Positions 1-6,000 of a stretch of DNA of 64,000 bases are shown one piece after another. A program made the position numbers. The DNA is taken from NCBI GenBank assembly GCA_002793915.1, contig PFEF01000005.1, forward strand, positions 83,108 to 147,107. Direction: 5' to 3'. Every line of letters starts with the position of its first letter. Within the stretch, counting starts at the first letter, position 1. Origin of the DNA: Candidatus Ryanbacteria bacterium CG10_big_fil_rev_8_21_14_0_10_43_42. Lineage in GTDB: Bacteria; Patescibacteriota; Minisyncoccia; Ryanbacterales; 2-02-FULL-48-12.

Positions 1-3000
1 AAAAAAACAATTAATATTTATCTTAATGGTACGTTTGATGACATATTTAAAAAGTTTAATGATACATCGCGGAACGAAATTCGAAAAACATTCAATATGA
101 AAGAATATTTTTTTAAGCAAGGTGATGTCGATATGGACGCCGTGTATGCTTTGTATAAACCGCATCGCATAGAGAAGAAACTTGAAGTGCGCAGGAAATC
201 ATTTTTAGCGCCTTGCCTTATATTTACGGCATATTATAACAATGAACTCATTTCCGTTATAACGTGTTATGATGCAAAACCTTATCTTCGTATTCAAAAT
301 ATTTTCTCAAAGCTTTCGAATGATGATAAGGAAATACGTCGTATTACGGGATATGCATCGCGACGCTTGGTATATGAACTTTGTAAATACGGAAATCAAC
401 GAGGATATATTCTTCTTGATATGGCATCGGCTAATTTTACTGATCCCGGAAAAGCCGGTATTACCCAATTCAAAAATTCGTTTGGCGGCAGAATTGAAGA
501 TGAGTATATATATACCTATCGAAATACTATACCGCGCATATTGGGTAATCTAAAAACATGGATAAAACGATGACCGTTTCTTTTGTAATTTCGGCGTATA
601 ATGAAGAGGCGACACTCGGACAAGTTTTAGATATGGTAAGAGAGGCGGTATTACCCGTGGGTATTACGCGGGAGATAATTGCCATTGATAATGGATCGCA
701 TGATGGAACAGCTGATATTATCAAAAGTTATTCTGATGTGCGCATGATTTCTCTTTCTCCTAATCGTGGTAAGGGAGGTGCCTTGAAGGTGGGGTTTGCA
801 GAAGCGAGGGGAGATATTGTTATGATTCAGGATGCCGATATGGAATATAACGCCGCTGATTATCCGGCATTACTGGAGCCGATTCTTTCGGGACGTACGG
901 AGATGGTGGTGGGGCGTCGGCCGCTTTCGGTGGTACCGTTTTCTGAAGGTGTCAGAAACGTACAGCATGTGCTTCCATATATCGGCAATAAGATTGTCAT
1001 GAAATATTTTATTAACTGGCTTTATGGAGATTCGGCGTCCGATTATGCATGCGCTTATAAAGTGTTTACTAAAAAACTGGTGGACAGCATTACCGTAAAG
1101 GCAAATGGATTTGATTATGAGTTTGAATTGGTTTGTAGAGCAATGCGGAAGAGAGTGCCTCTTGTGGAAGTACCTGTGCGGTATTATCCGCGCACTTATG
1201 AGGAAGGAAAAAAAATCAGAACAATGGATGGACTTAAAATTTTACGAACGGCTCTAAGAAGTAGGTTTTTTAATTGATTATGAATATATCATTTCGAGAT
1301 ATCGGTTATATTACCGTTACTTTTCTTGTACTTCTGGGATTTGCCATATATCATCCCGATGGTAGTTTTGCTATGAACCCTACCTATTGGGCAGATGAGG
1401 CAGTTTCCGTCGAGAAGGCGCGTAGTTTACTTACCTACGGAACGCTTGATATTGCGGTTGCGCCAGGCGTACTCTCCGATAAACCGTACGCAACAGCCGC
1501 CGCGGGACCTCTTCTTACGGTGCCACTCGCCGGTTTTTTTAGCGTGTTTGGTATTAGCGTTACGGGAGTGCGCGTGTTTATGATGATTGTTCTTGGTATT
1601 CTTACGGTCTCCGTATATTTCTTTGCTCGTTCTTTGTATGGGCAGGGAGTCGGATTCGCGGCGACTCTTCTTTTCGTTACATTTTCACCACTCTATGCAA
1701 ACGGAAAAACGGCAACGGGAGATATTCCCGGATTTTTAGCGCTTCTCTTTGGTTTATGGGTTTTGTTTAAAAAACGTTGGTATGTATTCTCCGGCATATT
1801 ACTCGGCGTAGCCATTACCACAAAGCCGTCGCTTTATTTGCCGGTTGCGGGTATTGCCGTGTTGGAGATTTTTTTATCCGAACATACGAAAGAACGCATC
1901 ATTCATGCTCTGCGTCTTATGGGAGGGTCGCTTATAGTTTGTCTTCCCTGGCTATACTCTCTTATTCCCGACATGAAGAACCCCGCTTCATGGAAAGAGA
2001 CATATTTCTTTTTTCGAAATCCCTTTCCGGACGATGCCGTATCGGTGATTTACCAATTAATGCAGGGAAATATATCAGCTCTTGTGCATACAACCATTTT
2101 TCATTTTTTTATTCTTTTCATTGTAGCGGGGACGGTATATATTTTTACGCGCCACCTGGACGAAGCCCGGTATCGGTTTATACGATTCGCCGTTCTTTAT
2201 AGCGCCGTTGCATTTATCTTATACTTACGAAGTCCGTCATGGCTTCGATATCTCATTGCGGGAGAATTACTTCTTTTTATTTCGTTTCTTCCATCATTAG
2301 AAACAATATGGCATGCGCGCGCGTTTCGGTATTGGGTACCAAAATGGTTTCCTGCTTTTATCGTAGGATTTCTTATTATGTTGCAAGGTATTCATATGGG
2401 ATTTTTTGCATGGCGTACCGCCTCTTGGACGGTACCGGAAAAAGCGCAGGCAATTACGGCACTTTTGAATCCTGGAGACACTATTGGTGTTATCGATGAC
2501 ATTTCAGTAGCGTCTCTTATTAATTCCCGTCAGAAATTTCAAATAGTGCGTATCAGCGGAAATACGATACTGGGGAAGAATCCTCTCGCATATTCATCAA
2601 ATGAATTGCCTACATATATCTATATACCGAGGAGTAGGTTTGGAAATATGGCGGTGCGGGATTTTGTAGATCCGTACAAAGATATTTTAGAAACATATTA
2701 TAAAAGCATTCCTGTTCCAGAGGAACGGTATATGTTATATAAAAGATTATAATGCGATCATATCTGCAAACACCATTAGCCTTGCTTATTATGGCCGTCG
2801 TTCTTGTGAGCGGCGCGTATTCATTTTATTATCATGATCGTCCGCGCGTGGATGCGCAGGCATATGATAAAATTGGATGGAATTTGGCGCGCGGATTCGG
2901 ATATATTGAGGATGAATCTCATGCCGGTATGCCGGAGAAAGATGATGCTGTTGTTCGTGTAGGTCCCGGGTATGAGTTTTTTCTTGCCGGCATATATTCC

Positions 3001-6000
3001 ATTGCGGGGCATGTCATATGGGTGGTTTGGATTTTTCATGCGCTTCTTAGGGGAGCAAGTGCCCTTTTGCTTTATTTCATAGCACGTTATGTGTTTGAGA
3101 AAAAATCTGACGTAGCAGGTGTTAACGAACAATCTTCCTATACTCATGCTATTGGTATGGTTGCTGTAATTCTTTTCGGGTTTTCACCCGATCTTATAGT
3201 TATTAACGGACTCCTTCTCACAGAGACGCTCTTTATCTTTTTACTTTTGTTATCGGTGTATGCGACGTTTTGGCTTTTCCATGAAGAAGAAGTCTGCACA
3301 TTACGAAAAGCTCTTTACGTAGGTTTATTCTGGGCGCTTGCTATTCTTACGCGTCCCGTTGCGTTAGTGCCTTTTTTTGTGGTGTCTGGTATTCTTTTTT
3401 GGCGGCGTAATGGTATTAAGTCTGCCGCAATATTACTGTTTCCGATACTTCTTATAGGCTCGTGGTCTTTTGTTATGACCACAAGATATAATCATTTTAT
3501 TCTTACGACAACTGCCGGGTGGTATGATATGTGGGTGGGAAATAATCCGGAAGCGGAGGGAGGGTTCATAAAAACACCGGAGATTCAGGCATTTCGTGAT
3601 AAAAATTACGACAGTACCATATTAGACAAGGTGGGGCGCGAAAAATATTTCGAATTCCTTACGGAACAACCCCTATCATTTTTGGAGTTGCAGTGGCGGA
3701 AGGCATCAATGTATTTTAGTTTGATGCGTCCGGGAGGGTATTGGATACATTTATATGCGCGTCCATGGGATTTACGTGTCACGCTTGGTGCATCAGCTCT
3801 ATGGACAGCTTTATTGTTTGTGGGCGGTATTGCGGGAGGTTTGCTTGCGTGGATGGCACGAAAGGATTTTCATACGCGTTTATTTCTTGTGTTTGCCATT
3901 ATACAGCCGCTTACGGTAATTCCTATCATTGTTGAGACGCGGTATCGATATGCCCTATTTCCCTTTTTAGCAGTTCTGGCGGCATATTGGGGAGTCTCAT
4001 ATGTAAAGAAGCTTGTTCCTCAAGCGCTTTTATATAAGGTTGTGGGGGTATCTTTTACCCTCATCCTAATTTTTACAGGATATGACCTTTGGTATAACGG
4101 AGAAGATATTAATAGCAAGATTAGGAAGGTAATATCATAATGCAACGCATTCTTTACATTACTAAATCTCCGCTTTCCTTTTCTCGTGCTTATGCGCGTA
4201 ATATGGTAAAGACGGCAGAGTATCTCAATAGGGAAGACGACATTTCCGTTACGCTTTTTTCTTTCGGTAAAGAACAAAAAACAAAACAGGAAATTTTTTC
4301 CGAAAAGGAGGTGCAGATTCCATTTGATATGAATATTGCTTCAAAAAAACGTTTCCTCATAAAAGAACTTTTCAGGAGACGAAATCAATTTGATATATTA
4401 TATTTCCGTGATCCGTTGCTGTGGCGTGCGGCATGGCTGGTAAAAAAATGGTGGGGCAAACGAATTATTTTTGAGGTTCATGGAAGCGAAGAATGGGGTA
4501 CAAAAACGCCATGGAAAAAAGCAGTATGTTTCGCTGATGGCTTAGTATTTATGACGGAAAAATTACGTAGGTATTATAATCCAATAGTACCGTACTGTGT
4601 AACGCACTGTAACGGTAACGATGAAGAGCAGAAAAAAGCGGAAGGAGCGGATGTGTTTGCCATACGGGAGGCATTGCATTTTCCAAAAGAAAAAACATTA
4701 ATAGGTATTACGGGAAGTTTTCAATGGGATTCCCAGGATTTACTGTTTTCCATATTAGTACTTCTTCCTTCAGCGGTAGAGTTGGTGCTTGTGGGGGTTA
4801 AAAAGGAAGCAGTGGATACCGTAAGGAAGAAGGCGCGTATATGCGGTGTGGAAAATCGCATTCATATAATAACGCGTGTTCCTATGAAAGATGTTTTTTT
4901 CTACACGCTTTCTATGGATATATTGATAAACCCGCTTGTCATTTCATATCCGGGAAGTCTTTCTTCAAAGTTGTATGAATATCTGGCGGCCGGAAAACCA
5001 ATTGTAACATCTCCGGGCGGTGCCAATGATGAAATTATAGAACATGGTAAAAATGGTGTTATGGTAGATCCTCCCACGCCAGAGAATTTTGTCCATGCCA
5101 TAGAGGGTATTTTACGGGACGCCGCATTCGGAGATGCGCTTTCGCATTATGCCGCTGAATCGGCAAAACGGTATACATGGGGTAGTCGTGCGCGGTGTAT
5201 AGCCGATATTATCCGGCTCATATAATAAAGACATATGCATATTTCAATCGTGGGATTTTTTGAGGAAGACCATGCCACGAACTGGCGCTTTTTGAAGGGT
5301 CTTGAAGAAAGAGATATTACGTATGCGTTTTGCCATATACCCTCTAGTATGACGCGGGCATCCTGGAAAGAGACACATCGATTTCTGAAAGCAGAAAAAA
5401 AGAAAACGGATGTTATATGGATTGGTGCATTTAGTCACCGTCTTATTCCTTTTATATATGTGCTCCGTTTTCTTGTATGGGGTTTTGTGCCGCCCCCGAT
5501 AGTGTATGATAGTATTATTTCTATTTATGATACGCGTGTGTTTGACCGGGGATGGGTGGGACGGTTTAGTTGGCGAGCGGTGTATTACTATATTCTTGAT
5601 TGGTTTGCGTGTCGGGTGGCAAAACGTCTTGTCGTGGACACAAACGAACACGCACGTTATTTTCAGAAAACATTTTTTGTGCGTCCAAAAAAATTAAAAC
5701 GATTGTTTCCGGGAGCAAATCGTGATATTTTCTACCCACGGAAAATTACTCAAGAAGAACGAGACGAACGCTTTACCGTGAGCTTTCACGGGAAGCTTAT
5801 TCCCGGCATGCTTGGCACGGAGTATATTATAGAAGCGGCACGCATATTAAAAAATGAACCTATCCTTATAAAAATATTCGGGAAAGGGTCGCTCTATGAA
5901 GAATATGAGGAAATTATTAAAAAAGAAAACCTTACGAATTTAAAATTGTGCGGCTATTTGGAATATAAAGACGTTCCGCACGAAGTTTCAAAATCGGATG

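Follow-up and report, generated by a model that had tools for sequence, protein, structure and literature searches.

Here we report that a 64-kb stretch of the genome of Candidatus Ryanbacteria bacterium CG10_big_fil_rev_8_21_14_0_10_43_42, an organism of the Candidate Phyla Radiation (CPR), encodes three gene modules, each combining a short family 2 glycosyltransferase (GT2) devoid of transmembrane (TM) helices with one or two polytopic membrane glycosyltransferases of the GT-C fold. The stretch, hereafter the window, covers 64,000 nucleotides of contig PFEF01000005.1 (positions 83,108 to 147,107). As judged from sequences and structure models, the best reading of these modules is that a polyprenyl-phosphate monosaccharide would be made inside the cell and its sugar transferred outside by the GT-C enzyme. 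This corresponds to the general bacterial three-component scheme, in which a GT2 makes a polyprenyl-phosphate sugar inside, the lipid is flipped, and a GT-C enzyme transfers the sugar outside (PMC11127046). We consider it probable that the Ryanbacteria modules are extracytoplasmic glycosylation systems of this three-component type, the acceptor being most likely the glycan or glycoconjugate that the gene island around them builds for the cell surface.

The modules comprise seven open reading frames (ORFs), all on the plus strand and all located where the original prediction, a first reading of this DNA, had placed them; independent public assemblies carry the same gene calls, in the same gene order. 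The short GT2s of modules 1 and 3 (558-1277, 239 aa, and 28905-29609, 234 aa) match the Glycos_transf_2 family with 93.8 and 140 bits, respectively, and the module 2 protein (21729-23135, 468 aa) is a fusion, in which a class I S-adenosylmethionine-dependent methyltransferase in the N-terminal half (Methyltransf_23, residues 31-182) precedes a GT2 half at approximately residues 228-468 (Glycos_transf_2, 233-362). Across the three proteins the PF00535 scores range from 76 to 140 bits. The three GT2s are clear paralogs, as originally proposed: 558-1277 and 28905-29609 are 40.5% identical (E 8e-50), and the GT2 half of the fusion shares 32% identity with the former (E 2e-26) and 30% with the latter (E 5e-21). 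The signature by which they had been recognized, NRGKG[GA]ALK.GF...IQDAD[ML]EY, is present in two of the three but not in the fusion, where the region reads NGTGKGDAVRKGF...ILDADLTV. The DAD (DxD) motif of the metal and nucleotide-sugar site of the GT-A fold, D88/D90, is invariant among the closer paralogs. Hydropathy analysis detects no TM segment in any of the three GT2s, and one weak hydrophobic linker stretch in the fusion.

Several comparisons place the short GT2s among the polyprenyl-phosphate and dolichyl-phosphate (Dol-P) sugar synthases. The best NCBIfam models for 558-1277 are AglJ, PpgS, ArnC and Dol-P-hexose transferase; 28905-29609 scores 120 bits with AglJ, 77 with PgfS, 72 with PpgS and 69 with ArnC, and the fusion scores 101.6 bits with AglJ over residues 232-457. 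All three stay far below the equivalog cut-offs (AglJ 102-120 bits vs 325, PpgS 53-72 vs 370, ArnC 31-69 vs 529), and their GT2 assignment therefore stands at the family level. Among proteins of solved structure, the best phmmer matches of 558-1277 are ArnC (9bhc), the dolichyl-phosphate mannose synthase (DPMS) of Pyrococcus furiosus (5mlz) and GtrB (5ekp); the alignments with ArnC and DPMS span residues 4-218, and those with GpgS-like GT2s only residues ~5-132. In a profile comparison by hhalign, the short GT2s aligned to residues 8-212 of Escherichia coli K-12 ArnC with 99.7% probability (E 3e-25). The matched region comprises the catalytic and interface parts of ArnC and ends just before its TM helices. 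The DAD motif falls within it, as does the R-x-x-G-x-(S/G)-K region toward the C-terminus, where the invariant R205 of the short GT2s aligns to the ArnC segment 'AEREFGESK'. An exact-sequence look-up of the 558-1277 product retrieved no record. From these similarities the short GT2s appear to be of the DPM1/ArnC/GtrB/AglJ/PpgS type and are candidate polyprenyl-phosphate sugar synthases, so the earlier description of them as soluble GT2s resembling Ppm1 and DPM1 is fair at the level of the family. Synthases of this kind without TM helices are well established, and include human DPM1, the catalytic domain of mycobacterial Ppm1, and PpgS.

The membrane partners are encoded by two genes in module 1 (1274-2752, 492 aa, and 2752-4140, 462 aa) and by one gene each in module 2 (23135-24484, 449 aa) and module 3 (29710-31083, 457 aa). 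Three of the four exceed the gathering cut-off of Pfam PMT_2 (PF13231, 26.1 bits), with 42.5 bits for 1274-2752, 45.5 for 23135-24484 and 39.2 for 29710-31083, and the fourth, 2752-4140, falls below it with 19.3 bits. The family of the latter comprises at least 185 homologs, which mostly match PMT_2 and in some cases PMT. None of the four window proteins matches PF02366 (PMT) or PMT_4TMC at E<=0.1, and MIR domains were likewise not detected; PF02366 is carried by some of their homologs. Since the synthase cut-offs were missed and no PMT or PMT_4TMC match was detected, we did not file the GT2s and GT-Cs as equivalogs of ArnT, Pmt/GT39, PpgS or AglJ.

Searches of PDB sequences with single GT-C sequences and with profile hidden Markov models (HMMs) gave nothing useful, so that comparison of folds was needed; a SecG match of the GT-C profile A3 (E 0.014) was dismissed as spurious. 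AlphaFold2 models were built for two of the four GT-Cs. The model of 1274-2752 (16-sequence alignment, pLDDT 78, pTM 0.82) is ArnT-like, with ~11 TM helices and a C-terminal extramembrane domain. Its top Foldseek match in the PDB is ArnT (5ezm/5f15; E 1e-6, TM-score 0.54, 13-15% sequence identity), and the top 28 matches are all GT-C enzymes (ArnT, AglB, STT3, PglB, ALG9/12, DPY19, AftB, Pmt4). The all-helical model of 2752-4140 (58 sequences, pLDDT 93.9, pTM 0.93) likewise retrieves only GT-C enzymes among its top 29 matches (PglB, STT3, ArnT, Pmt4, ALG12/9/3). The two other proteins, 23135-24484 and 29710-31083, are tied to the GT-C class by their PMT_2 matches and by profile alignment, the group of 23135-24484 aligning with the family of 1274-2752 at 96.7% probability (E 4e-10, hhalign). 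By sequence and by model, the membrane partners are thus assigned as GT-C fold enzymes of the PMT_2 family, of the ArnT/PMT kind, in agreement with the GT-C class originally proposed; of the Pfam families searched, PMT_2 was recovered in three of the four and PMT in none. For 1274-2752 and for 23135-24484, a 100% identical protein exists in a large protein collection, and exhaustive HMMER searches with the family of 29710-31083 yielded 35 cluster representatives at E<=1e-30 and 1424 at E<=1e-3. The product of 2752-4140 has a best match of only 78% identity, which may reflect another start in the public record or a differing cluster representative.

An Asp residue located just after the first TM helix (TM1) is conserved in all four GT-C families (D41 in 1274-2752, D34 in 2752-4140, D39 in 23135-24484, D41 in 29710-31083). 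In the family of 1274-2752, D41/E42 within YWxDEAxSVEKAR are nearly invariant (>=90%), and E47 and T183-K184-P185 are invariant. Among the 58 homologs of 2752-4140, D34 and Y38 of VDAQAY are invariant, as are D147, E158 and R201. D39 of 23135-24484, in WGDAHLY, aligns to D41 of 1274-2752 by both hhalign and MAFFT, and D41 of 29710-31083, in DDAEVY, is at least 90% conserved in the module 3 family and, like D34 of 2752-4140, falls in the same MAFFT column. A D-E pair occurs only in 1274-2752, the other three GT-Cs having D-A. Of the first-loop acidic motifs named at the outset, ADE corresponds to D41/E42 of 1274-2752 and is conserved, but EDE (residues 53-55 of 2752-4140) is not; in FDELRDD of 29710-31083 the last D is the conserved D41, and the FDE part is not conserved. 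For 23135-24484 no motif had been named. Two independent profiles place the Asp on D31/E32 of E. coli ArnT, in PDETRYAEISREM, and the T-K-P motif on ArnT 'MTKGF', in alignments that are statistically weak. A literature search for ArnT with 'DEXRYA' found nothing. By homology with known GT-Cs, the loop that carries this Asp presumably faces the outside of the membrane.

Where the GT2 and GT-C genes of modules 1 and 2 meet, the stop codon of the one overlaps the start codon of the other by 1-4 nt, and in module 3 the genes are separated by a 100-nt gap; with the 58 genes in random order, the chance that all three short GT2s directly precede one of the four GT-Cs is ~1.2e-4. The module 1 cluster recurs in Parcubacteria in the order GT4, polysaccharide deacetylase, a 243-aa protein, GT2 (235 aa), PMT_2 protein (~490 aa), an optional second PMT_2 protein (~460 aa), GT4 and methyltransferase, the second GT-C being present in loci L003-L005 and missing from the otherwise syntenic L001/L002. 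A 127-aa gene in these clusters (L001:12433-12816) encodes neither a membrane protein nor a flippase. Three independent relatives repeat the gene order of module 2 (GT2 domain, GT-C, methyltransferase), with orthologs of the GT2 half of the fusion, 74-81% identical, directly upstream of the GT-C in L089, L090 and L091. The downstream methyltransferase (24481-25260, plus strand, Methyltransf_11) is kept in L006, L089 and L091 and is fused to the GT-C in P0021/L007. In L006 (37-1398), a DDE transposase and a 151-aa membrane protein of the SMR/ArnE-F-like type replace the methyltransferase-GT2 fusion upstream of the GT-C, and a separate short GT2 lies with methyltransferases on the other strand, an arrangement that is evidence of module shuffling.

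To follow the short GT2s beyond these relatives, GTDB species genomes were scanned with a five-sequence GT2 alignment as seed, a nine-sequence alignment being too divergent. More than 553 relatives were found, the best 80 of which are 40-59% identical and come from over 15 bacterial phyla, including Peregrinibacteria, Acidobacteriota, Verrucomicrobiota, Planctomycetota, Bacteroidota, Chloroflexota, Cyanobacteria, Gemmatimonadota, Saccharibacteria and Yanofskybacteria. The label "actinobacterial-style" originally given to the system was dropped, because a family spread over so many phyla has no specific tie to Actinobacteria. A polytopic protein with at least 7 TM helices is encoded within 3 kb of the short GT2 in 42 of the 80 loci. 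Pfam analysis of the 35 polytopic ORFs lying no more than 300 bp from the GT2 identified ten PMT_2, one GT87 and one YfhO protein, all of them GT-C, along with a few Wzx, MATE or MFS proteins, and about half had no Pfam match. A GT-C of the PMT_2, GT87 or YfhO families thus adjoins the short GT2 in at least 12 of the 80 loci; the GT-C HMMs A1-A3 of this study are too narrow for such a census (12/80 loci). Flippase-type genes stand beside the pair in several relatives, namely SMR/ArnE-F-like genes in L006 and L008 and a GtrA gene (84.9 bits) in L072 from Saccharibacteria, and therefore complete three-component systems of such type exist.

The window encodes two additional full-length candidates for polyprenyl-phosphate sugar synthases, both on the plus strand and both with C-terminal TM helices. 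The first (37767-38726) is a GT2 of the ArnC/PgfS/GtrB type that scores 221.7 bits with PgfS and 144.8 with ArnC, aligned over residues 6-314 of 316, and is 30% identical to E. coli ArnC over 309 aa (E 2e-41). The second (39945-40886), of the ArnC/PgfS type, is 43% identical to the first and matches PgfS over its full length with 207 bits. The two genes flank an RfbH-like gene, and neither adjoins a GT-C. The lipid-linked sugars that they would make may be used by one of the four GT-Cs, such as the optional second one in module 1. With five candidate synthases against four GT-Cs in the window, the original description of a system in triplicate is overstated, and a one-to-one pairing of GT2s with GT-Cs is an assumption.

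According to family scans of the window genes, positions 1-54304 of the window (G+C content ~0.42) form a single large surface-glycan island. It is a glycan locus of the Wzx/Wzy type, with an initiating phosphoglycosyltransferase (48353-49762, minus strand; EPS_sugtrans 325 bits, above cut-off), a Wzx-like flippase, two Wzy_C-TPR proteins and GT4/GT2 enzymes; its content includes two GT4s, one further GT2, many methyltransferases, a GDSL protein, CDP-hexose pathway genes, and carbamoyl- and sulfotransferases. The Wzy_C-TPR proteins are tandem paralogs (49857-52103 and 52106-54304; 29% identity, E 1e-84). Each is ~740 aa long and combines 13 TM helices with a Wzy_C domain, of the O-antigen ligase/polymerase/PglL type, and with C-terminal TPR repeats; they adjoin the divergently transcribed phosphoglycosyltransferase gene and are candidates for a polymerase, ligase or O-oligosaccharyltransferase.

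Upstream of module 2, gmd (19831-20829, plus strand; Gmd equivalog 553 bits, above the 415 cut-off) overlaps an fcl-like gene (20810-21751, plus strand; GDP-L-fucose synthase model 286 bits, below the 500 cut-off), which in turn overlaps the methyltransferase-GT2 fusion (20810/20829 and 21729/21751). Because these genes run directly into the fusion, their sequences suggest that they supply a GDP-6-deoxyhexose as the donor for module 2. Downstream of module 3, the end of the GT-C gene overlaps by 4 nt a glucose-1-phosphate cytidylyltransferase-like gene (31080-31862, plus strand; TIGR02623 296.2 bits vs a cut-off of 300.25). This gene is the first of a CDP-hexose-type set (31080-31862, 35778-37765, 38753-39952, 41066-45622) that includes a CDP-glucose 4,6-dehydratase-like protein, an RfbH/E1-like pyridoxal phosphate enzyme (337 bits) and, in the 41066-45622 region, an acetolactate-synthase-like thiamine pyrophosphate enzyme followed by a short-chain dehydrogenase/reductase, and a DmpF/DmpG-like acetaldehyde dehydrogenase and aldolase. 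By sequence the set resembles a CDP-3,6-dideoxy or branched-chain hexose pathway, and presumably recalls the yersiniose-type (YerE/YerF) synthesis of branched sugars.

Other island genes point to further substituents. The interval between modules 2 and 3 contains a gene for a NodU/CmcH-type carbamoyltransferase and, after it, one for a small SxtJ-like protein with three TM helices (25257-27486, the latter at 27073-27486). The pairing, known from saxitoxin clusters, suggests O-carbamoylated sugars. Genes for ATP-grasp/citrate-binding, CoA-ligase and citrate-synthase C-terminal proteins inside the island (45632-48344), similar to ATP-citrate lyase or citryl-CoA enzymes, may serve the synthesis of an acyl or carboxylate substituent. 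The region 15215-18981 encodes an LtaS/EptA-like protein (four N-terminal TM helices and a sulfatase-fold domain), a cytoplasmic sulfotransferase and, on the opposite strand, the Wzx-like flippase (17713-18981, minus strand), and could modify the glycan further, outside the cytoplasm or by sulfation. At its start, the window truncates a gene (1-573) that corresponds to the conserved 243-aa protein (L003:6558-7289), which in Parcubacteria always stands directly before the module 1 GT2 and after the GT4 and polysaccharide deacetylase genes. It has no Pfam or NCBIfam match; its C-terminus, '...GITQFKNSFGG', looks FemAB/GNAT-like by eye, a likeness that was not confirmed.

From the folds, family relationships, conserved residues and gene adjacency described above, we infer a donor lipid, its sugars, a flipping step and an acceptor as follows. 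At the cytoplasmic face, the TM-less GT2 would move one sugar from a nucleotide sugar to a polyprenyl phosphate, presumably of the undecaprenyl type. For module 2 the donor would probably be a GDP-6-deoxyhexose made with the gmd and fcl-like products, perhaps methylated by the fused or neighboring methyltransferases. The polyprenyl-phosphate sugar would then be flipped by a flippase encoded outside the window, and at the outer face the adjacent PMT_2-family GT-C would add the single sugar to an acceptor, with the conserved Asp after TM1 as the likely catalytic or acceptor-activating residue. The surface glycan built by the island would be the most likely acceptor, and secreted or surface proteins the main alternative.

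Several observations weigh against this scheme. The short GT2s lack a membrane anchor with which to reach polyprenyl phosphate; their NCBIfam equivalog scores are all far below cut-off. In other phyla, a recognizable GT-C neighbor is seen in only a minority of the short-GT2 loci, and the family is therefore not exclusively tied to GT-Cs. A flippase gene of the GtrA, SMR/ArnE-F or MATE type is missing from the 64-kb window, which contains no small ORF with 3-4 TM helices besides the SxtJ-like 27073-27486, and tblastn searches of the window with E. coli ArnE and ArnF and with the SMR-like proteins of L006 and L008 gave nothing at E<0.3. The hhalign comparison with the single E. coli ArnT is weak (E 0.065-0.001, probability 1-20%). 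For the module 3 GT-C, no close relatives were found in genome or metagenome contigs, the gene adjacency seen in relatives being that of modules 1 and 2.

The most serious alternative concerns the acceptor alone and shares all upstream steps: the GT-Cs would place single sugars on Ser/Thr residues of secreted, S-layer or pilin proteins, like Pmt (GT39) in the Actinobacteria, the analogy drawn in the original prediction; we regard this outcome as possible but rather unlikely. PMT_2 is common to bacterial Pmt-like enzymes, some homologs of the window GT-Cs also match PF02366, relatives bear the NCBI name 'glycosyltransferase family 39 protein', Pmt4 is among the fold matches of both modeled GT-Cs, and in L003 and L004 prepilin-like (N_methyl) genes lie a few genes away from the module 1 cluster. 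Protein O-glycosylation has precedents in the GT39 system of the Firmicute Caldicellulosiruptor (PMC6151902) and in the streptococcal GtrB/PgtC2 and PgfS/PgfM1 systems (PMC12041528). However, the best fold match of 1274-2752 is ArnT and not Pmt; the matches to Pmt1/2/4 are partial (~270-310 columns, TM-score 0.32-0.38), except for that to Chaetomium thermophilum Pmt4; and the PMT_4TMC and MIR domains were not detected. The window yielded no gene for a Ser/Thr-rich candidate acceptor, and the position of the modules inside a polysaccharide island with an initiating phosphoglycosyltransferase, Wzx and Wzy_C fits the decoration of a glycan with side-chain sugars, of which the Gtr, Arn and GT136 systems are examples. 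The island context favors surface-glycan decoration at least as much as protein O-glycosylation.

The remaining alternatives question the pairing or the enzymes themselves. The short GT2s could be ordinary cytoplasmic transferases acting on undecaprenyl-diphosphate-linked repeat units, and the GT-Cs could be independent of them, using donors from the 37767 and 39945 GT2s or acting like polymerases or ligases. The two canonical membrane-anchored ArnC/PgfS-type synthases without an adjoining GT-C, the absence of TM helices from the short GT2s, the uniformly subthreshold equivalog scores and the many loci of other phyla (most of the 80) without a recognizable GT-C would all agree with such a division of labor. 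We nevertheless think it improbable, given that the short GT2s resemble ArnC and DPMS, and these only, over their full length, including the acceptor/interface half, that synthases without TM helices are established (the NCBIfam PpgS model itself has 226 positions), and that the adjacency of overlapping ORFs is kept in relatives and is improbable by chance. That the membrane proteins are instead flippases or transporters, the finding named in advance as contradicting the original prediction, can be given almost no credence. They are indeed polytopic proteins without a solved close relative by sequence, but three of the four match PMT_2, a post-TM1 Asp and a K/R-P motif are invariant, and the two modeled proteins have GT-C enzymes as their only significant fold matches, with transporters (BetP, BicA, MsbA, MFS) at noise level in both models (probability 0.05-0.28, TM-score ~0.1); we therefore ruled this identity out.

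Within the favored scheme of polyprenyl-phosphate sugars used by GT-Cs at the outer face, a more specific and decidedly speculative version is that the TM-less GT2s dock on the translationally coupled GT-Cs to form self-contained two-protein machines without a dedicated flippase gene, and that the module 2 donor is a polyprenyl-phosphate 6-deoxyhexose of the fucose type, possibly O-methylated. Docking has precedents, as DPM1 needs DPM3 and Ppm1 needs Ppm2, and the operon gmd-fcl-(methyltransferase-GT2)-GT-C-methyltransferase would imply the donor; we know of no description of a polyprenyl-phosphate 6-deoxyhexose as a lipid-linked donor. If this version is true, the modules together would let CPR bacteria, with their minimal genomes, vary their surface in a modular fashion.

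CPR bacteria are uncultivated, have tiny genomes and are mostly host-attached, so that the chemistry of their surface lies at the heart of their biology, and it has hardly been studied; a literature search on lipid-linked GT-C glycosylation in CPR found no paper. The mechanism considered here is textbook knowledge and the system is known and widespread, so the value of this analysis lies in annotation and comparison and not in a new concept. Somewhat unusual features are the multiplicity of the modules in a minimal genome, the coupling of TM-less synthases to GT-Cs without a flippase gene, and the methyltransferase fusions around module 2, beside gmd and fcl. The Ryanbacteria genome invests at least four GT-Cs and five candidate polyprenyl-phosphate sugar synthases in one ~55-kb glycan island, and the analysis supplies concrete targets in the conserved Asp residues, the operon partners and the likely GDP-6-deoxyhexose source for module 2.

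Among known systems, the Gram-negative ArnC/ArnE-F/ArnT system for undecaprenyl-phosphate 4-amino-4-deoxy-L-arabinose, consisting of a GT2, an SMR flippase and a GT83 GT-C, is the closest structural and profile match. The catalytic and interface region of the short GT2s is homologous to ArnC; ArnT is a PMT_2-family GT-C and the best match of 1274-2752, with the loop-1 D-E in register with PDETRYAE of ArnT in weak alignments; relatives carry ArnE/F-like small membrane proteins; and the genes form an operon, as arnBCADTEF does. Unlike the Arn system, the module GT2s lack the C-terminal TM helices of ArnC, no flippase gene was found in the window, and no ArnA/ArnD chemistry is encoded beside the modules. 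Lipid A is an unlikely acceptor in a CPR organism without lipopolysaccharide genes in the window.

The actinobacterial systems provide another comparison. Ppm1 and Pmt (GT39) O-mannosylate proteins, and PpgS (Rv3631) with Rv3779 galactosaminylates arabinogalactan. The Ryanbacteria modules share with them a short GT2, TM-less or separately anchored, and a GT-C of the PMT/PMT_2 type using a polyprenyl-phosphate monosaccharide, and a short GT2 aligned to positions 3-220 of 226 of the NCBIfam PpgS model; they differ in the low PpgS scores (53-72 bits vs 370) and the lack of a Ppm2/Lnt-like anchor. To our knowledge, the actinobacterial synthase and GT-C genes are not adjacent. Similarity to the archaeal AglJ and Dol-P-hexose synthases is seen in AglJ being the top NCBIfam model for all three GT2s and in P. 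furiosus DPMS (5mlz) being the second-best PDB match, aligned over residues 4-218. In contrast to the modules, which stay below the AglJ cut-off of 325 and have no STT3/AglB homolog here, the archaeal enzymes end in TM helices and provide the donor for AglB-dependent N-glycosylation.

The GtrA/GtrB/Gtr*, CsbB-GtcA-YfhO, GacI-GacL and GT136 systems decorate O antigens, teichoic acids and rhamnan polysaccharides (PMC11127046, PMC7389260). As in the Gtr-type systems, a DPM1-like GT2 synthase is combined in the modules with a GT-C adding a side-chain sugar outside, in or near a glycan locus; the best solved matches of the GT2s include GtrB, and GtrA stands beside the short GT2 in L072. Unlike the membrane-anchored GtrB enzymes, the module GT2s have no TM helices, the window lacks GtrA, and the module GT-Cs belong to PMT_2 and not to the Gtr*-specific, YfhO or GT136 families. 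Finally, the streptococcal PgfS/PgfM1 and GtrB/PgtC2 systems also combine a polyprenyl-phosphate sugar with a GT-C that works on the outer side of the membrane, in an envelope of the monoderm type (PMC12041528). Their GT-Cs, PgfM1 and PgtC2, are of the YfhO family and not PMT_2, and the PgfS cut-off of 500 is not reached in the window, but PgfS is the best match of the 37767 and 39945 GT2s (222 and 207 bits).

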